Part shown: in pieces, positions 4,855 through 15,394 of the stretch | Position numbering within the stretch: position 1 is the first letter of the stretch | How the letters are laid out: each line of letters begins with the position of its first letter | Virus record (IMG/VR): IMGVR_UViG_3300009177_000032 | Coordinates: 14,673 to 78,672 of that record | DNA from: a virus | DNA: 64,000 nt | Strand: one strand, 5' to 3' | Notes under the pieces: generated by a model | Databases searched by the model: none | What the model was told of the DNA's origin: nothing | Seen by the model: only the letters and a program-made list of their open reading frames with translations | Position numbers and translations under genes: made by a program

Positions 4855-5094
4855 TCAGTCGGTTGGGTTCACTCCGTAAATTATGGAGGGGTTGAATTTA
4901 CGGGAGCAGCCAAACGGTCTGCCGATCAGGGTTGAAATGGTTTGGCAGGTGCTGCACGGGCGCTCGCTCCATTGGTGAGGGTCGGCCTCTATCAGTTCTA
5001 GCGCGGTTTGGCACATTAAGCGAGCGGCAGCGCGTATTGTAGATTCAAGGACCTTCTCGCTTTCCAGCGACGGGGAGTGATTCTCGTTTGCCAT
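4855..5094 (-). CDS. MANEN cassette 4 protein (CxxC)
   Basis: 79 aa, starts MANENHSP; DPHQWSERPCSTC motif. Confidence 0.75.
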   Translation of the reverse strand: MANENHSPSLESEKVLESTIRAAARLMCQTALELIEADPHQWSERPCSTCQTISTLIGRPFGCSRKFNPSIIYGVNPTD

Positions 5095-5101
5095 AGGTCA
5101 G

Positions 5102-5464
5102 TCAGGTGGCGAGCGCGGTGCAGGCTATCTTTCTAACTTCCGTTAATCTCGCTCGCAAATCAACCAGACCAAACACTCGAAACGCTGCATCGTCGTTTCC
5201 GAGTTGGTCGCATTGCCTCAGAGCCTCAGCGAGTCGCTCACAGAACACACAGGAAAATTGTTCGCAGCCTTGCGCCACATGCTCATTGTCAACTGGTGGT
5301 GCTTTTGTGGGATCATGGCGTCCTGCGATCTTCTGACGTATTTCCTCAATGCCATTCCAGAGGTCTCGCCAGTCCTCAACCGTCCAGTCTTTAGCATCTA
5401 TCGGGATTTTGGATTTCATCTCTTTGATCGTGCAAAATTGGTTGAATTGTTCCGATTCACTCAT
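5102..5464 (-). CDS. MANEN cassette 3 main ORF
   Basis: MSESEQF... starts in ATGA overlap with the stop of mini-ORF MANENQPPLRKNCYS* (5461-5508). Confidence 0.7.
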   Translation of the reverse strand: MSESEQFNQFCTIKEMKSKIPIDAKDWTVEDWRDLWNGIEEIRQKIAGRHDPTKAPPVDNEHVAQGCEQFSCVFCERLAEALRQCDQLGNDDAAFRVFGLVDLRARLTEVRKIACTALAT

Positions 5465-5516
5465 GAGTAGCAATTCTTTCTTAGAGGGGGTTGATTCTCG
5501 TTTGCCATAGGTTTAG

Positions 5517-5771
5517 TCAGTTGATAATAACGTAGGCGTCCAGCCATTCGAGCGGTGGATCGCCTTCAAAATTCACCCGGCCATCTATGGAAAGCGTGGC
5601 AATTTCAGGACACTGAAGGTCCTTGTTATCATCACAGGCGGGGCCGAGTATCGCCTCTCTCGTTGCTTTAGCGCGGTCCGCCAGATTGTCGAACACTCGG
5701 ATGACGGGACTGCCTCCCGCTTCGGCGTGTTCAATTAGGACGTATTTCAGGGGGTGATTCTCGTTTGCCAT
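5517..5771 (-). CDS. MANEN cassette 2 protein
   Basis: 84 aa, starts MANENHP. Confidence 0.75.
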   Translation of the reverse strand: MANENHPLKYVLIEHAEAGGSPVIRVFDNLADRAKATREAILGPACDDNKDLQCPEIATLSIDGRVNFEGDPPLEWLDAYVIIN

Positions 5772-5778
5772 AGGTCAG

Positions 5779-6033
5779 TCAGTCCTTTCCACCAGCCGCA
5801 TGAAACTCGTTCCACCATGTATTCAATCGGCAGCTCAGGTTTCCCACTTCTCCATTGGTGATATCAATACTCTCGCGCAACGGGGCTAGAATTTTTTCCG
5901 CTGATCGCAATTCAACGCGCCATGTCTCTAGGCGTTTTTCAGCGTCTTTTTTTCGGGCAATAAGTTCCTGCAACGTGTCACCGTTACGGCAGGCGAAAGT
6001 GTTTTTATTCGGGGGTTTATTCTCGTTTGCCAT
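5779..6033 (-). CDS. MANEN cassette 1 protein (coiled coil)
   Basis: 84 aa, starts MANENKPP. Confidence 0.75.
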   Translation of the reverse strand: MANENKPPNKNTFACRNGDTLQELIARKKDAEKRLETWRVELRSAEKILAPLRESIDITNGEVGNLSCRLNTWWNEFHAAGGKD

Positions 6034-6035
6034 AA

Positions 6036-6509
6036 TTAAAACGGAGGTGGCCCCGTTACAGTCGCTCTATTGTTATCGTTGCCCCCTCTTGACCGGGAGC
6101 GCACAGCTCGCTTTTTACTACCAGTTCCCGGAAGGAGGTCCAACAATCGTCGCACGGCAGTAACGTAGCAATCCGCGAGCGTGGACAAGCAGCCATCCGG
6201 ATCTCGACGCCGATAGTCTGAAAAACGGAGCGTAATTGTGACTCGATAAGGGATATAGCCTTTTTCATCCACTCCATGTGCTCCGGCAGCGTGATCGGCC
6301 TGGCCATCGCTTTTAGGCCCCGCTTGCGATACCAGATCTCCCCTTTGTAGGCCATCACTGTGGCGCTCTTGCTGTCGATCCACGCAAACGCCCGCTTGCC
6401 CGTCTTGAAGGATGGGATCGGGCCGATGCCCTTTAGCTCGAGGATGATTGGGGGCATAGGGCACTCCGTCGATCCAAACAATTCCGCTTGTGTCTTTGTC
6501 ATAGGGCAT
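6036..6509 (-). CDS. RusA-like protein, frame B (central catalytic segment), overlapping frame A
   Basis: YRVTITLRFSDYRRRDPDGCLSTLADC resembles the RusA V.I.....RrD.DN..K...D.L core. Confidence 0.5.
   Translation of the reverse strand: MPYDKDTSGIVWIDGVPYAPNHPRAKGHRPDPILQDGQAGVCVDRQQERHSDGLQRGDLVSQAGPKSDGQADHAAGAHGVDEKGYIPYRVTITLRFSDYRRRDPDGCLSTLADCYVTAVRRLLDLLPGTGSKKRAVRSRSRGGNDNNRATVTGPPPF
6056..6502 (-). CDS. RusA-like Holliday junction resolvase, frame A (N- and C-terminal parts)
   Basis: ILELKGIGPIPSFK.. N-terminal strand/loop and C-terminal DD.W...ELVVK......EGATITIERL typical of RusA; lacks the central catalytic segment. Confidence 0.6.
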   Translation of the reverse strand: MTKTQAELFGSTECPMPPIILELKGIGPIPSFKTGKRAFAWIDSKSATVMAYKGEIWYRKRGLKAMARPITLPEHMEWMKKAISLIESQLRSVFQTIGVEIRMAACPRSRIATLLPCDDCWTSFRELVVKSELCAPGQEGATITIERL

Positions 6510-6512
6510 GGC

Positions 6513-7106
6513 TTAACCTGCGCCCATGGCCCTCAAGCCGGACTCATAGGCAGTTTTGAGCTTAATGAATTCCTCGTGCGTCCCGCCAGCGTCAGGGTGA
6601 AGCCTTTTCGAGAGCTGCCGGTAAGACTCCTGCAGTGTCGTGATGTTGATCTCGTTTGGGTCCCGAAAGCCGAACACCTTCCACCACTCCCGCACCTCCG
6701 GCGCAGTCGCCCCGGCCGGCAACTGCTTAAACCCGGTGAACATCGCCTTGATCATGTGCTTGGCTCCCCATCGTTCCATCCCGCGCATTGCCTCGACCGT
6801 CAACGCTATTGCCTGGATGTTGTGAGCGATTCTGTTCCAGCGGTCGCAAGGGATGGCCATTTGCGTATTGTCCCACTCGAAGTAGGCGCAAACGCCCGGA
6901 TCTTTCGGGTTGTCCTGGCCGAGCGCGGCATTGCTCGAGAGCACGATGCTTTTCGCGCCCATGCGTGCGAGCTCGCGCTTGAGGTTATTGAGGGCGCCTT
7001 GAGTGTCCGTCTTGAAGCTGCCCGATTCCCTGCGGAACGGGTCAGTCTTTGGCCAGCCCGGAGGCCATGCTAGAGGATAGGCGGTCGGTGTTTGGATCGT
7101 GCTCAT
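6513..7106 (-). CDS. J-domain (DnaJ-like) protein
   Basis: C-terminal YRQLSKRLHPDAGG with HPD motif; N-terminal AYPLAWPPGW and CDRW...N..AI..T..A.R...RWG of the phage J-protein family. Confidence 0.9.
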   Translation of the reverse strand: MSTIQTPTAYPLAWPPGWPKTDPFRRESGSFKTDTQGALNNLKRELARMGAKSIVLSSNAALGQDNPKDPGVCAYFEWDNTQMAIPCDRWNRIAHNIQAIALTVEAMRGMERWGAKHMIKAMFTGFKQLPAGATAPEVREWWKVFGFRDPNEINITTLQESYRQLSKRLHPDAGGTHEEFIKLKTAYESGLRAMGAG

Positions 7107-7632
7107 TGGGATGGTAGTTAGTTATGCGAAAACTGAGTTTCCGCCCGTTCCTGTAACCGTAAGGATAGAAGGCCACACCCAACGCCTTTACCAGCGTCAG
7201 ATCGTTTTGCGGTACGTCGAGGACTACATAGAGGTGATCGCCTTTGTCCTCGTAAACGACCTTGATAAGCCGGTCGTAAATGAGATTCAGGAATTCACGT
7301 ATCATCGTCGTGAGCTCTCCGCCGCCTTCCCATTGCCGGTTTGGCTGAAATGGTTTTCGCTCTGGCTCTGCCTCGCCGCGGAAACTCTCTCGAATCTCGA
7401 CCTTGACCTCGATGCCAATTCGCCGGCCCATGCGCTCGGCTACCTGGCGGATCGCCATGATGGTTTTGCCCTGCTTACCGATCATGATTCTCAGGTCCTG
7501 GGTTTCGGGCTCGACTGTGACCTCGAGGAGGTTCGTCGCGAAACGCTCTTTGAAGTTGATCCTATCGGGAGTCGACGAGTAAGACCGGAACAGGGAGATA
7601 AGAACCTTCGTTATCGGGTGTTTTTCGTGCAT
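7042..7632 (-). CDS. KhpA-like KH-domain RNA-binding protein
   Basis: EVTVEPETQDLRIMIGKQGKTIMAIR..V.VEI is the type II KH GxxG loop as in KhpA; C-terminal half looks like a second degenerate KH. Confidence 0.75.
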   Translation of the reverse strand: MHEKHPITKVLISLFRSYSSTPDRINFKERFATNLLEVTVEPETQDLRIMIGKQGKTIMAIRQVAERMGRRIGIEVKVEIRESFRGEAEPERKPFQPNRQWEGGGELTTMIREFLNLIYDRLIKVVYEDKGDHLYVVLDVPQNDLTLVKALGVAFYPYGYRNGRKLSFRITNYHPNEHDPNTDRLSSSMASGLAKD

Positions 7633-7646
7633 TGCTGGCCGCGGTT

Positions 7647-9089
7647 TTAGTCGTTGTGCCGGCGGTAGTCAAGATGTTCCTGTTCGGGGACGTCCTCATC
7701 GCTGATTTTTGCCGTGGCTTCAAACCGCGTTACCGACTTCCAGAACGTCAGCCCGATTTTCCCCGTCGGTCCGTTCCTCTGCTTGGCCACATCCAGCGCA
7801 ATGGGCACCACATTGCCGTCCACTTGATCCTCGCTCCCCTCTTTGCGCGATAATAGCATTACCGTGTCAGCGTCCTGCTCAAGACTGCCGCTTTCGCGGA
7901 GGTCTGCGAGCTGGGGCATCCCCTTACGGCCATCGATGCCACGCTTGAGTTGCGAAAGCGCGATCACGGGGATGCGCAGCTCCTTACAAAGTGCCTTTAG
8001 ACCGGCGGAGATTTCCGAGACTTCGCGCTCCCGGTTATCAGGTCGCTTCCCGTTGATTGAGGCGCTCAGGAGCTGAATGTAATCCACAACAAGCAGCTTA
8101 ATATCGTGCTGGATGACCATTCTCCGCGCTCGAGCTCGCAACTCCATAATGCTGAGCCCCGAGACGTCGTCTACAAACAGATGAGAAGCTGCGATCTTGC
8201 CGGCAGCTCCGGTGAGCTTGGGAAAATCGTTCTGCGCCATGAAGCCATCGCGGATGTTCCTTAGGCTGACTCGCGCTCGAGAGCAAAGCATCCTCAACAC
8301 CAGCGAATCTACCGTCATTTCGAGCGAAAAGACTCCCACCGGAAGCTGCTGATCGATCGTAACGTGCTCGACAATGTTCATCGCGAGCGAGGTCTTTCCC
8401 ATGCTCGGGCGAGCGGCCAAAATGTAGTACTCCCCTGGCACAAGCCCGCCGGTTAATTTGTCCAAGTCCTGAAAACCGGTCCCCAGTCCGATTAAGGCTC
8501 CGGCGCGCGTCAGAAACTCCTCAATCCTGTCCATTGATTCATGCACAACCTGCCGGATCGGCCTCAGTTGCTGTGCTGCCCCGATCTGGCGGACGTCCAT
8601 GATATCGCGCTCGACCAAATCCAACGCATTGGACGTGTCCGGTTCGTCGTAGAGGCGCGATACCGCCTCGGTACAAGCCACGATCATTTTGCGCCGACGG
8701 TAGTGCTCGAGCATCACATCGAGAAACGTTTCCAATGCGTCCGCAGTTGGCGCCAGATCGGGAAGCTGCCCTATGTAACTCATCCCGCCGACCTGCTCGA
8801 GGAGCTGTTTGTCTTTCAGGTAATTCGCCAGGGTAACCACGTAGAGCTTTACCCCCGCGTTGACGAGTTCCTCCATAGCCATCCAGATCGACCGGTGCCG
8901 CATATCGAAGAAAGCCTCAGTCGCGTTCCTTCCCAATTTCTCGATCACCAGACTCACGCCCTCCGCCGATCTGGTTTCATCAATGAGAATGCAACCGAGG
9001 GCTGATTGCTCAGCCTCAATGCTGTGCGGGGGCAATCGATCGACGGCGGGGGCTTGCCGGCGCTGTCGCCTAAGATCCGGTTCACTCAT
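7647..9089 (-). CDS. dnaB: replicative DNA helicase
   Basis: PPHSIEAEQS, AARPSMGKT, FSLEM, VVDYIQL, LSQL.R, LRESGSLEQDAD, KQRNGPTG. Confidence 0.97.
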   Translation of the reverse strand: MSEPDLRRQRRQAPAVDRLPPHSIEAEQSALGCILIDETRSAEGVSLVIEKLGRNATEAFFDMRHRSIWMAMEELVNAGVKLYVVTLANYLKDKQLLEQVGGMSYIGQLPDLAPTADALETFLDVMLEHYRRRKMIVACTEAVSRLYDEPDTSNALDLVERDIMDVRQIGAAQQLRPIRQVVHESMDRIEEFLTRAGALIGLGTGFQDLDKLTGGLVPGEYYILAARPSMGKTSLAMNIVEHVTIDQQLPVGVFSLEMTVDSLVLRMLCSRARVSLRNIRDGFMAQNDFPKLTGAAGKIAASHLFVDDVSGLSIMELRARARRMVIQHDIKLLVVDYIQLLSASINGKRPDNREREVSEISAGLKALCKELRIPVIALSQLKRGIDGRKGMPQLADLRESGSLEQDADTVMLLSRKEGSEDQVDGNVVPIALDVAKQRNGPTGKIGLTFWKSVTRFEATAKISDEDVPEQEHLDYRRHND

Positions 9090-10173
9090 TCAATGAAATG
9101 CGCCCGGAAAAGAAGCTCAATAAAAGCTGTCGCGCCCTGGACCGCCACAACTGCGTTGCCGGTGCACCTGAGCTGATCGATTCTGCCCTCGTCCAAAACC
9201 ATGGCATGCCCATCAGCCAACACGCGAAAGCCGGGTTTAACCGCGGGCGAGAGCCCTTCGGAGCCTTGGAGGATTTCGGGCCATCGGGGGTCTTTTGGCC
9301 CTGGGGCGAAAATAAGAGAACAGCTTCCGTCAATGGTCGGGAGTTGCCGTAATCTTTTAGCGTCTCGCCGCTCCGGTAATCCCTGCTTTGGCACGTCGGC
9401 CAATTCTCCGTCTCCAGGCTGAGGGTCGTTTTGTTGCGCGCTGCCTTCCTTCCGCGGCCGCCCGCCTGCTCGCCGTCCATCGTGGTGACCGTCGTCCAGT
9501 TGGCTACCTGTGCCGGCAGCGCTGCCCCCGTGTTGCTCCGATCCTCCTTCGCAAAGTCCGGACCGCTCGCCCCGTCCCATCCCTTCGGGGTCGCCCATTG
9601 GCTGGCTTGGTCCTGCAGCGTGACCTGCATTTTGTTCCCCGTTTCGTGTTGAGCTCTCTCGACCGCCTCCTGGCTCCGCGTCCTGCTCCCGCCTGTCGGG
9701 GCATCCGGGGTCGCCCACTTCTCCGCCTGGCCGGTCAAGCTGTCCCGCTCCATTCCCTCTATCCCGTGATCCCGAGTGAATGCGCCCGCCTCGTGCGATC
9801 GAGGGGTTTGCCAATTCGCCGCCTCCTCCTGCAGTTGGCGTCCAGCCTTGCCGCATCCATGCTGATACCTGTTGTTTCCACCAGAGTCCATCCGGGCCGT
9901 TGCGGTAGGCCAACACAAAGACTCTCTCTCGCTCGTGTGACGCTTTAACGTCGTCCGCAAAGATAAAGACAGGCTCGACGATCTCGTAATCCAGTCGCGA
10001 TAGTTCTCCTCCAAAAGCCATGAATGGATAATTGATTTTTCCTGTTCGCTTGTCCCTAAGCCCTCTAACCCAAGCTGGCACGTTTTCGAGGAGCACCAGG
10101 GCGGGGCAACACTCCTCGATGAGTCGAAGGCAATGCCTAGCAGGTCCTTCTCCGTCACCAAATGCTCGAGCAT
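9082..10173 (-). CDS. C5-MTase beta polypeptide in alternative frame (six W-x-T repeats plus motif IX); start uncertain, frame open from 10503
   Basis: WPTATARMD, WQTPRSHE, WATPDA, WATPKGWD, WTTVTTMD, WPTCQSRD repeats and RLNPAFACWLMGMPWFWT. Confidence 0.7.
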   Translation of the reverse strand: MLEHLVTEKDLLGIAFDSSRSVAPPWCSSKTCQLGLEGLGTSEQEKSIIHSWLLEENYRDWITRSSSLSLSLRTTLKRHTSERESLCWPTATARMDSGGNNRYQHGCGKAGRQLQEEAANWQTPRSHEAGAFTRDHGIEGMERDSLTGQAEKWATPDAPTGGSRTRSQEAVERAQHETGNKMQVTLQDQASQWATPKGWDGASGPDFAKEDRSNTGAALPAQVANWTTVTTMDGEQAGGRGRKAARNKTTLSLETENWPTCQSRDYRSGETLKDYGNSRPLTEAVLLFSPQGQKTPDGPKSSKAPKGSRPRLNPAFACWLMGMPWFWTRAESISSGAPATQLWRSRARQLLLSFFSGRISLNE

Positions 10174-10468
10174 CTCGATTTCCCTCTCTGTTTCCGGCGC
10201 AACTGAAGGGGGTACAAGGGAGCGAAGCTGTAAAAATGTGAACCAGCCCGCGAATCTGAAGAAGTGAGAGGCCGGCAATATCGCCGATCCAAATAGGGTG
10301 TTCCTCCACGCTCTGTTCTTCCATCCGCGCCAAGTACACGGCGTTGGCGTAGCTTTCCCATTCCGCGCTACATAAGGTTTGTAATCCGGGAAAAACGAGC
10401 TTAACGGCTTCATCGAGCATCCCGATGCCGCGGCATATCGAGACGCAAGTCGGCGCGGGACTAACCAC
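9086..10468 (-). CDS. DNA cytosine-5 methyltransferase, alpha polypeptide (motifs I-VIII, X)
   Basis: SICRGIG (I), PCTPFS (IV), LENV (VI), HERERVF (VIII), LRCTGNAVV (X); middle is low-complexity G/R/P-rich. Confidence 0.85.
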   Translation of the reverse strand: MVSPAPTCVSICRGIGMLDEAVKLVFPGLQTLCSAEWESYANAVYLARMEEQSVEEHPIWIGDIAGLSLLQIRGLVHIFTASLPCTPFSCAGNREGNRDARAFGDGEGPARHCLRLIEECCPALVLLENVPAWVRGLRDKRTGKINYPFMAFGGELSRLDYEIVEPVFIFADDVKASHERERVFVLAYRNGPDGLWWKQQVSAWMRQGWTPTAGGGGELANPSIARGGRIHSGSRDRGNGAGQLDRPGGEVGDPGCPDRREQDAEPGGGRESSTRNGEQNAGHAAGPSQPMGDPEGMGRGERSGLCEGGSEQHGGSAAGTGSQLDDGHHDGRRAGGRPRKEGSAQQNDPQPGDGELADVPKQGLPERRDAKRLRQLPTIDGSCSLIFAPGPKDPRWPEILQGSEGLSPAVKPGFRVLADGHAMVLDEGRIDQLRCTGNAVVAVQGATAFIELLFRAHFIE

Positions 10469-11048
10469 ATTGACCCCCCTCGCGGAAACTTTTCCAGTCG
10501 CAAACCACCAGCATGCCGCTCTCGTTCATGCGCGAAACATTGGCCGGCCCGAGCATCGTCTCGAGCGACTCCTGATTACTGTTGCTGATAAGGATCGTTT
10601 CCTTCATCAGCCCATAGCGCTTGTTAATTAAATGGTCGAGCAGCCGGTCCTCCCACTGCGTCTCGGCGCGCTTCTCATACTCATCGATGATGAGCAGTAT
10701 CGGCTTGGCGAAATTCGACAACACCATTTCCTCCGTGTCGGGGCTGTCCCTGTGGTAGCTCGCCTTGATCAGGAGAAAGAAGTCCATCGCTGTAACGTAT
10801 CGGCACGGCCAACGGTGATTTTTGATAACGCTGTAAATCAGGTTTGCCCCGATCTGAGTTTTACCCACCCCGCTCTTTCCGATCAGCGCAATCAGGCTCC
10901 CGCGCCCGAGCCGGTCGTAGATATCCTGCCCTGCCTGCAGCCAGGGTCCGTCACCCTGGGCCGTCTTGAACCGCTCGCGGTACCTGAGCGGCAGTCTCGA
11001 TTCTATTAATAGTTCCGTTTGTTTGGTGTCCATTGTCGCTTGCTCCAT
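10461..11048 (-). CDS. DnaC/IstB-like AAA+ helicase loader
   Basis: GKSGVGKT, LLIIDE, LINKRY, ILISN, SRM. Confidence 0.9.
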   Translation of the reverse strand: MEQATMDTKQTELLIESRLPLRYRERFKTAQGDGPWLQAGQDIYDRLGRGSLIALIGKSGVGKTQIGANLIYSVIKNHRWPCRYVTAMDFFLLIKASYHRDSPDTEEMVLSNFAKPILLIIDEYEKRAETQWEDRLLDHLINKRYGLMKETILISNSNQESLETMLGPANVSRMNESGMLVVCDWKSFREGGQCG

Positions 11049-14000: not shown

Positions 14001-15394
14001 ATCAGCTCGGTTTGTTTGGCGCTCACCTTCCCTTGCTCCACGACAAACACCCCGACCTCAGCCGGCGCTTTTGCCGGCGCCTCCCCTACAATGGTCGCCA
14101 GGATCGTCTTGTGCTCCTCCTTGGCCCGATCGACAAACTCGAAAATCGATTTACCCATACTCTCCGCCCGGTCGATCAGTGATATCCCGAAGCCCTCGGG
14201 ATACATCGCGCTCAGCCGCTCGCTCAACCGCATGATCTGGCTCGTGCTCAGCATGCCGGCGCTCGTCCCTTCAAAGGTGAATTCTCCCTCCTCGTTGAAC
14301 GAGAGCCCGTCGATCGTGCTCGCGCACTTTGCCAGTCTGGTAACCCGCTCCTTTTTGATATCGCGCTGGCGGGCCTCGAGCATCCGGACTTTCATGTCCT
14401 TCTTCTCTTTGTCCGCGGCCTTGACCTTATTCTCCTCGTAACGCTGCCGGCGCACCTCGTTCCCTGACGCCTCCATGAGCTGTTTTTCCAAAGCCTGGAT
14501 CTCCGGAGTCGTACCGACCCACGACATAACAGCCTCGCGCGTCTTTACCAAACCCTCGGGTATCGGGGGCTTGGGTTTGAATGTGATCATCGGGTTTGCG
14601 CGCAGGACCCCCTCCTCCTCATCCAGCTTGCGCGAGAGCTCCGCTATCTGCGCCTTTATCCGCGCAACCTCAGCCTTTGCCGAGTTGTGACGGGTGTTCT
14701 GCTCACGCGACTGCTCATTTACCAGATCCACCTCTTTGCATTCGTCGTTGTAGATCGACTCATACTCTTTGAGTGACGCCTGCAGCTTGCGCAGCCCGTC
14801 GGCATGCGCTTCCTGAGCCTCGGTCAACTTCGCCCGGAGCTCGAGCGCGTTGCTCTCAGGGACAGGTGTCAAATCAATCACCCCATACGCTTTAACCTCC
14901 GCCCGGAGCTGCTCGGCTTCGCGCTGCGCATTGAATGCCTCAGTGTCGAGGTCCTTGGTGTCCACGGGGAACGTGTCCACAAAATACTGTTTGCGCTGAG
15001 CCTCCGTCATCTTTTTCAGATACTCGTGGTCCACCACAAACGGATTAACCAGGCGCGCGAGCTCCGATGCCGGCCGATCTACCGGCCTGCCGTCCCGGAT
15101 AAACGTCGTTTCCCGGGCCTGAGTCTTGCCCTTGTTTTTGCCGGACGTGCTCCGGTACCACGAGCGCGACACCACGCCCGTATCGAATTCAAAGTCTATC
15201 GACGCCTCATCCGCCCCGTGCCGGATAATGTCCTCGGGCCAGGAGCTCGCCCCCAGGACCCAACGCACACAGTTGAGGATCGTCGTTTTACCCTGCCGGA
15301 TATCCCCGAAGAACAGGAGCAGCGACTTGTTGATCTCGATCTCCGTATCTTCGATCAGGCCGATGTTTTTAATTTTGAGTCGGATTGGTTTCAT
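13997..15394 (-). CDS. SMC/Rad50-like ABC ATPase with coiled coil
   Basis: IKNIG, GDIRQGKTT, long coiled coil, LSTSQ signature, LIDRAE Walker B. Confidence 0.8.
   Translation of the reverse strand: MKPIRLKIKNIGLIEDTEIEINKSLLLFFGDIRQGKTTILNCVRWVLGASSWPEDIIRHGADEASIDFEFDTGVVSRSWYRSTSGKNKGKTQARETTFIRDGRPVDRPASELARLVNPFVVDHEYLKKMTEAQRKQYFVDTFPVDTKDLDTEAFNAQREAEQLRAEVKAYGVIDLTPVPESNALELRAKLTEAQEAHADGLRKLQASLKEYESIYNDECKEVDLVNEQSREQNTRHNSAKAEVARIKAQIAELSRKLDEEEGVLRANPMITFKPKPPIPEGLVKTREAVMSWVGTTPEIQALEKQLMEASGNEVRRQRYEENKVKAADKEKKDMKVRMLEARQRDIKKERVTRLAKCASTIDGLSFNEEGEFTFEGTSAGMLSTSQIMRLSERLSAMYPEGFGISLIDRAESMGKSIFEFVDRAKEEHKTILATIVGEAPAKAPAEVGVFVVEQGKVSAKQTELI

Follow-up and report, generated by a model that had tools for sequence, protein, structure and literature searches.

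Is one RusA-like resolvase encoded here in two reading frames at once, and, if so, do the frames yield two polypeptides or are they joined by ribosomes that change frame? This question is raised by a locus at positions 6036–6509, on the minus strand, of a 64,000-nucleotide (nt) stretch of the virus record IMGVR_UViG_3300009177_000032 of IMG/VR (positions 14,673 to 78,672 of that record), hereafter called the window. A first-pass annotation, made from the letters of the window, had described two fully overlapping open reading frames (ORFs) on the same strand with starts 7 nt apart, A (6502–6056) and B (6509–6036), and had left the choice between two assembling polypeptides and a double frameshift. 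Both ORFs are present as described, and of its two proposals the first is favoured by our analysis, whereas the second found no support. With a probability of roughly 0.68, as judged from sequence comparison and structure prediction, A and B are two separately translated polypeptides that together form a RusA-like resolvase whose active site is composite, by the two-chain logic of the DNA methyltransferase M.EcoHK31I. What carries this reading is the mapping of RusA homology onto the two frames, together with selection that is specific to each frame, two frames that are both kept open, the geometry of the two starts and selection on the termini of B.

The features of the locus are as follows.

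6056–6502, minus strand: ORF A, 148 amino acids (aa) plus stop, with a RusA-like N-terminal module and C-terminal strands and an unconstrained linker between them.
6036–6509, minus strand: ORF B, in the −1 frame relative to A, 157 aa and a stop codon; the catalytic core (RusA beta2-alpha2) is preceded by an N-terminal peptide and a long filler, and followed by a tail with a PPF tip at the C-terminus.
6500–6515, minus strand: twin-start region, consisting of TAA (in frame B, ending the upstream gene), GCC, ATG (B), CCCT and ATG (A).
6230–6448, minus strand: A residues 19–91, with beta1, the PSFKTGK loop, a variable insert and helix alpha1; selected in frame A.
6233–6250, minus strand: doubly constrained zone, A codons 85–90 (LIESQL) over B YRVTI.
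6153–6257, minus strand: B residues 85–119, the RusA beta2-alpha2 core with D103, D105 and D113; its 5′ end is the doubly constrained zone.
6164–6229, minus strand: A residues 92–113, the linker over the B core; open, and unconstrained in sequence.
6059–6163, minus strand: A residues 114–148, LLPCDDCW...EGATITIERL, with D118/D119 and strands beta3-beta4.
6036–6047, minus strand: C-terminal tip of B, PPF plus TAA, 3′ of the stop of A.
6260–6268, minus strand: ATG AAA AAG, the −1 slip site proposed in the first-pass annotation; unsupported.

The ATGs of the two ORFs lie within ATGCCCTATG (minus strand), and B runs in the −1 frame over the whole of A, so that a second chain in another frame, which is a feature of M.EcoHK31I, is found here as well. 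The +1 frame across the same span is interrupted by 9 stops. ORF A carries IILELKGIGPIPSFKTGK, then a WM-containing helix and then the C-terminal DDCW...EGATITIERL. In its PSFKTGK loop K33 and K36 are invariant, and helix alpha1 has the pattern WM..A...I.SQL. Over the unconserved middle of A, frame B reads YRVTITLRFSDYRRRDPDGCLSTLADC. The motif assignment made previously, which gave the N- and C-terminal RusA-like motifs to A and the core motif to B, is thus borne out in all its parts.

Scans of viral and metagenome contigs yielded 29 loci, from which a split set of 19 distinct genes, the window and 18 relatives, was assembled. In addition, 38 full-length homologues of A were found at 40–88% identity, in which D119 is invariant and D118 nearly so. 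In three of the 29 loci (L027–L029), which are 23–25% identical to A, the motifs of the N-terminal part of A, the middle of B and the C-terminal part of A all stand in one frame, in the order GLGPVPSFKNGK, VRVALYISSLGTADPDGALATIMDVL and ADDS...GQEGAQISITL, and the −1 frame holds 5–7 stops. The split layout is found in all the remaining loci. When the profile of this contiguous family was applied to the split genes, it matched frame A (3–55), frame B (about 80–112) and again frame A (116–143) in 19/19 loci, and it never matched frame C in any of them. The E values were 1e-6 to 1e-13 in most loci for the first A segment and mostly 1e-4 to 1e-9 for the B segment; the final A segment was matched weakly.

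The same contiguous relatives provide the link to RusA. Searched alone, neither ORF A nor ORF B matches Pfam RusA (PF05866, cut-off 22.8 bits), and RusA was likewise not found when all six frames of the 78.7-kb viral record were searched. PHROG 34 (RusA-like) matches B of the window only at E = 0.035, over residues 87–114; in the split set it is matched by 12 of the 19 B ORFs, with a best E of 1.7e-5. Contiguous relatives searched singly against Pfam and the PHROGs reached only E = 0.04, to PHROG 34, and a profile of 5 of them returned nothing from the PDB sequences except spurious matches to radial-spoke proteins. The contiguous profile, however, retrieved 383 proteins from 1.84 billion representatives; Pfam RusA is matched by 34 of the 48 contiguous relatives sampled (best E 8.9e-13), and the broader profile built from these 48 sequences, which was required to reach RusA among the PDB sequences, aligns to 1Q8R at E 3e-9.

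Against this 48-sequence profile, the window scores 25.4 bits for A alone, in three fragments, 25.3 bits for B alone and 46.3 bits for the A-B-A read. The A-B-A read forms one full-length match, and B alone covers the part complementary to A: the segments of the profile are 3–52 and 97–126 for A and 56–92 for B. The A and B scores are roughly additive in 19/19 split loci. The profile mapping and the RusA link of the contiguous relatives together indicate that a RusA-like domain is divided in the order A-B-A over the two frames. At the level of sequence, the Pfam RusA link of the window locus is therefore transitive, running through the contiguous relatives.

The model of a contiguous sister protein (predicted local distance difference test, pLDDT, 92.6; predicted template-modelling score, pTM, 0.85) has E. 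coli RusA as its top seven matches in the PDB (E 3e-6 to 3e-4, template-modelling score on the target 0.72–0.78). The AlphaFold model of A alone has a pLDDT of 72, dropping to 61–68 over residues 91–130, and a Foldseek search with it against the PDB found no match (best E 0.54), which shows no more than that A alone is not a known fold.

RusA requires three aspartates (D70, D72 and D91), and D70N is named in the titles of PDB RusA entries. In the alignment to 1Q8R, RusA D70/D72 correspond to B D103/D105, D80 to B D113 and D90/D91 to A D118/D119. The equivalents of all three catalytic residues are present in the split genes, B D103 and A D119 being invariant and B D105 mostly conserved, and they lie on two ORFs. 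The acidic residues are thus drawn from both frames, as the first-pass annotation had proposed.

How selection acts on the two frames was examined in a codon alignment of the 19 split genes, as the mean pairwise nucleotide difference at each codon position. Over A residues about 16–91, position 3 of A is the most variable, with about 0.7 as compared with about 0.3 at position 2. Over A residues 92–113, the most variable position is position 2 of A, which is position 3 of B (0.63–0.67 versus 0.23–0.4 and 0.4–0.5). Over A residues 114–148, position 3 of A is again the most variable (about 0.65–0.7). Residue 87 of A varies among E, A, V and G because the third position of an invariant B arginine (CGN) is free. 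A codons 85–90, which lie over YRVTI of B, are constrained in both frames: the Tyr/Phe of B is always T[AT]T, the Ile/Val of B is always [AG]TT, and Leu90 of A is never CTN.

The openness of the frames shows a corresponding division. The number of stops expected was obtained by resampling synonymous codons in the 19 split loci. For frame B, upstream of its core, no stop was observed and 32.8 were expected, whereas downstream of the core 23 were observed and 24.9 expected. For frame A, across the core of B, no stop was observed and 27.6 were expected. Frame C, which served as the control, had 74 stops observed and 71.3 expected in the N region, and 29 observed and 16.8 expected in the middle. 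The homologues thus keep both frames open while selection switches from A to B and back to A, a pattern that the first-pass annotation had suggested looking for and that is seen across the 19 split loci. The possibility that B is a chance ORF was rejected on the basis of the A, B, A order of the profile matches in the 19 loci and of the missing stops in B upstream of its core and in A across it.

In a FastTree phylogeny of the A-B-A reads and the contiguous relatives, aligned with MAFFT, the 19 split genes are monophyletic (support 0.994), with the contiguous group L028/P0043–P0048 as their sister (support 0.812). By this tree the split layout arose once and was kept while A diverged to about 25–35% identity. 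Contiguous single-frame homologues, which the first-pass annotation had named as a sign of compensating indels or decay, were found only as this sister group; conservation of, and selection on, the split layout itself argue against both decay and compensating indels in one genome.

B also has the properties of a gene of its own. It has a start codon in every split locus, which in the relatives lies 4–34 nt 5′ of the start of A. In 8 loci the start of B shares an ATGA or TAATG with the stop of the gene before it; three loci have the start of A coupled in this way. In the window the region reads TAA GCC ATG(B) CCCT ATG(A). These sequences indicate that B has an independent translation start, which is a further feature of M.EcoHK31I.

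For the N-terminus of B, the peptides fall into the classes PNASESFKRRNPHL, MPxWTSEEY and DEL..M...G[YF]V, and of the four classes compared, three show purifying selection at the protein level, while DEL..GYV has almost no synonymous differences and is therefore uninformative on this point. Between L011 and L020, 13 of the 16 N-terminal residues of B are identical, 9 of them through different codons, and the differences at positions 1, 2 and 3 of B number 3, 2 and 10, respectively. Between L009 and L025 there are 6 synonymous codon differences in B, including AGT-TCC for serine, mostly 5′ of the ATG of A. The conserved N-terminal classes, written as FPNASESFKRRNPHL, MPxWTSEEYxxY and DEL..M...G[YF]V, occur in L004, L008, L009, L011, L012, L016, L017, L020, L024 and L025.

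For the C-terminus of B, the window subclade runs 17–29 nt beyond the stop of A and ends in GTN CCN TTY plus a stop, as read in 8 related loci. This VPF-plus-stop sequence varies only at third positions and in the choice of stop codon. A profile of the B ORFs retrieves 38 proteins called by gene finders in other metagenomes, and nearly all of the long B-type proteins among them (142–213 aa) end in [VLP]PF. Six B ORFs also match PHROG 1532, whose function is unassigned, weakly.

The [VLP]PF end of B, seen in the window and in L001, L002, L004, L006, L007, L012 and L013, is similar to the terminal residues of the SSB tail of bacteria (DDDIPF; PMC5872125). By this analogy, the PF tip of B could be a partner-binding tip. 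A search of the phage record for a Pfam SSB gene found none.

A co-fold of the two chains was computed from A (148 aa, 38-row alignment) and B residues 76–130 (19-row alignment). The interface score ipSAE was 0.63 (0.67, 0.62 and 0.63 in the individual runs), as compared with 0.00 for the best of three controls; the mark applied to this score is reached by 58 of 80 solved complexes and by 2 of 110 mismatched pairs. The runs agreed in at least 82% of contacts, with a partner pLDDT of at least 67. B 90–94 pairs with A 141–145 and 127–130, and B 114–118 packs on A 82–83; the predicted contacts, which place the strand of B between the C-terminal strands of A, resemble the RusA topology. The co-folding of A with B, which the first-pass annotation had called for, thus reached this mark. 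The model shows that the pieces fit, and it does not establish them as separate chains.

From these data we infer that A and B are translated separately, assemble and have nuclease activity. In the two-polypeptide mechanism, ribosomes would start at either of the two adjacent start codons, probably fed by termination-reinitiation from the upstream gene. Starting at A would give a 148-aa chain with beta1, the PSFKxxK loop, alpha1, a linker of free sequence, the DD motif and beta3-beta4; starting at B would give a 157-aa chain with the short conserved N-terminal peptide, a free filler, beta2-alpha2 with RRDxD...D, and a tail ending in VPF or PPF. The functional segment of each chain would thus be the spacer of the other. 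The strand of B would insert between the C-terminal strands of A and the helix of B would pack on alpha1 of A, so that the RusA fold is rebuilt, with a composite acidic site formed by B D103/D105 and A D118/D119.

We also lean, with only slight preference, towards a broader form of the two-polypeptide reading, in which the locus encodes an obligate two-chain enzyme of the RusA fold (about 120 residues) from completely overlapping frames, with selection alternating by segment and the twin starts fixing co-expression. This arrangement would have arisen once and been kept across a large phage clade. The termini of B, including the SSB-tail-like PF tip, would serve as a partner-recruiting or regulatory handle that is absent from ordinary RusA, and frame-splitting may be a recurrent route in these phages.

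Several points weigh against separately translated chains. The whole case is built on comparative sequence analysis and prediction. The only purine-rich stretch at the starts in the window (AGG) lies about 7 nt 5′ of the ATG of B and about 14 nt from that of A, and initiation at A must therefore rely on reinitiation or on a weak signal. In L013, which keeps VPF plus stop, frame B is interrupted by a stop between core and tip. The equivalent of RusA D72 varies in some split genes (DPTG, DLSG, DNPG), and the residue aligned with RusA K76 is a serine. The 19 loci share ancestry, and multiplying the probabilities of single sequences (about 1e-16) therefore overstates the significance, although synonymous sites are near saturation. 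The asymmetry of openness within one frame, together with the controls, is nevertheless clear despite the kinship of the loci. The co-fold could draw on the model's memory of the RusA monomer, and a single A-B-A chain would be expected to give it equally; since the split is one of a known fold, similarity to solved RusA may account for part of the result. Finally, A-rich runs at the first junction of several loci may allow low-level slippage, which would give an A-B fusion.

The two junctions were examined for signals of such slippage. At the first junction, no X XXY YYZ heptamer or other motif is common to the 19 split loci. The slip site suggested for the window in the first-pass annotation, G ATG AAA AAG, lacks conservation in the 18 relatives, and the 80 nt downstream of AAA AAG (6259–6180) show no unusual RNA structure (−13.3 kcal/mol, z = +0.96; of 200 shuffled sequences, 169 fold with equal or greater stability). 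At the second junction, no slip motif is shared among the 19 loci. The switch between the frames is clean, falling between A codons 113 and 115–116, and all indels are multiples of three. The D118 codon is GAC in 19/19 loci; GAT there would give TGA in B. The D119 codon is GAC in 12 and GAT in 7, and the codon before D118 never ends in T. This avoidance of TGA in B at the DD codons suggests that B is read through them, just past the only interval open to a +1 shift. A canonical −1 frameshift at AAA AAG was rejected, the site being neither conserved nor followed by RNA structure.

The rival explanation that survives best, although we consider it improbable, is one of mixed products, in which B has its independent start and some ribosomes also shift frame, so that fusions such as A(N)-B or B-B-A are made alongside A and B, one of these products being the active or regulatory form. 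The twin starts and the openness of both frames would permit several products, the A-rich runs at the first junction in some loci are compatible with slippage, and in the subclades in which B ends randomly soon after its core, a shift from B to A would add beta3-beta4. Conversely, there is no conserved shift signal, B of the window subclade runs to its own conserved VPF end, and the constraint on the D118 codon keeps B open beyond the sole place at which a +1 shift could occur. No observation requires a fusion.

Recoding into a single chain is likewise unlikely and comes next. Here the ribosome would read A, slip by −1 into B before the YRV strand and slip by +1 back before DD, giving a single-chain A-B-A RusA of about 147 aa. 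This would account directly for the A-B-A read being one full-length RusA-like match (46.3 bits) that mirrors the contiguous relatives; the window offers ATG AAA AAG at the first junction, where some relatives have runs of A, and at the second junction B reads NGA CGA, usually tandem arginines. However, a slippery heptamer or any other motif is conserved at neither junction in the 19 loci, and the window site has no stable structure 3′ of it. In addition, a model of two fixed slips requires neither kind of openness, and thus leaves unexplained both that of the N region of B (0 versus 32.8 stops) and that of A across the core (0 versus 27.6). It also leaves unexplained the coupled start of B, the selected termini of B and the double constraint at codons 85–90. 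Moreover, B avoids TGA at the DD codons, where a +1 shift would lose nothing by a stop and could even gain from one.

Two further explanations are very improbable. A broken or decaying RusA gene with two compensating indels, or an assembly error, with B as a fossil frame, would agree with the distant homologues being contiguous single-frame genes and with neither ORF alone reaching the Pfam RusA threshold, but the layout recurs in 19 distinct loci of independent metagenomes and in 38 A-type and 38 B-type called proteins, forms one clade in which the identity of A falls to about 25–35%, and shows purifying selection in the A-B-A pattern with both frames free of stops. On the grounds of the conserved layout, the purifying selection and the open frames, both the pseudogene and the assembly error were rejected. 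That A alone is a new, non-RusA gene, and the long B ORF with its RusA-like motif a by-product, would suit the many full-length homologues of A and its moderately confident fold (pLDDT 72), but the second codon position being the most variable at A 92–113 cannot be reconciled with selection on A but is what selection on B would give, the core of B matches RusA profiles, the A-only model has no PDB match, and the termini of B are selected.

The gene just upstream of the locus (6513–7106, minus strand, 197 aa) belongs to PHROG 9210 (E 9e-48) and has its TAA stop in frame B, 3 nt before the ATG of B; it also has a weak DnaJ-like C-terminal stretch that is below the Pfam cut-off. Further upstream lie a KH-domain protein of the KhpA/B type (7042–7632, minus strand, E 1.2e-8) and a 480-aa ORF (7647–9089, minus strand) that by eye looks like a DnaB-type replicative helicase. 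The presence of the KH-domain gene and the DnaB-like ORF suggests that the resolvase sits in a replication-recombination module. On the other side, within 4855–6033 (minus strand), the consecutive small genes 5779–6033, 5517–5771 and 4855–5094 all start with MANEN and are otherwise unrelated.

A second pair of fully overlapping ORFs, of 473 and 460 aa, is found at 9082–10503 (minus strand). The frame 9086–10468 matches the C5 DNA methylase family PF00145, at profile positions 3–164 of 324 only (E 1.3e-16), and the other frame has repeated W.TP units and RLNPAFACWLMGMP, with no Pfam match. From these sequences, a second enzyme of the phage, a C5 methylase, appears to be written in two frames. 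Since this methyltransferase is apparently built in the same way, genes may repeatedly have evolved by frame-splitting in these phages.

If the two-polypeptide reading is true, the locus is a natural case of a single domain split by overprinting, with a catalytic centre shared by the products of two frames, and is likely to encode the junction-resolving enzyme of the replication-recombination module beside the DnaB-like helicase gene. Gene finders call only one ORF of the pair, without assigning a function, and resolvases would therefore be missed in hundreds of uncultivated phage genomes. The compact locus could also serve as a model for the evolution of overlapping genes, for the partition of selection between frames and for twin starts that set subunit stoichiometry. 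Our literature searches found no description of a resolvase encoded in two overlapping frames or by frameshift, in agreement with the first-pass annotation, which had known of none.

Compared with known systems, the locus has its elements in the same order as E. coli RusA (PF05866; 1Q8R, 2H8C, 2H8E), a resolvase that cleaves Holliday junctions with Mg: a strand, the PS..N/K loop, a helix, the RRDxD strand, the D helix, DD and two strands. E. coli RusA is one polypeptide of 120 aa that forms a homodimer, whereas here the central strand-helix unit lies in the −1 frame of the ORF that encodes the remainder, and the elements are divided over two frames in 19/19 split genes. RusA has no counterpart to the N-terminal peptide or the C-terminal PF tip of B. 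Judged by its sequence, the locus descends from RusA-family genes and would work like RusA, while differing from the family in matching no Pfam model by itself and in not being a single polypeptide. The contiguous relatives (L027–L029; P0039–P0048) are its closest single-frame homologues and share with it the motifs GLGPVPSFKNGK, ADPDG..T.MD.L, DDS and EGA.I.I; they differ in having one frame, with ordinary stops in the −1 frame (5–7) and no B-type termini.

Genes with programmed frameshifts, such as dnaX, the IS3 transposases and the phage tail chaperones G/GT, have a conserved slippery heptamer and a short overlap. As here, two overlapping frames feed the protein output of one locus. In contrast to those genes, no slip motif is conserved in the split genes, and A and B, which have separate starts, stay open along the full length of the gene.

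To our knowledge, M.EcoHK31I, with its partial overlap, is so far the only experimentally documented case of a single domain split by overprinting. In this C5 DNA methyltransferase, the beta chain is encoded wholly in another frame inside the alpha gene (PMC2836561). The genetic logic, an enzyme that requires both of its chains and whose small chain lies inside the gene of the large one, is the same as that proposed here, whereas the enzyme family and the fold differ. In M.EcoHK31I the beta chain supplies a peripheral motif (IX); in the present locus the overlap is complete and reciprocal, and the piece that would be supplied in trans is the central strand and the catalytic helix of one small domain.

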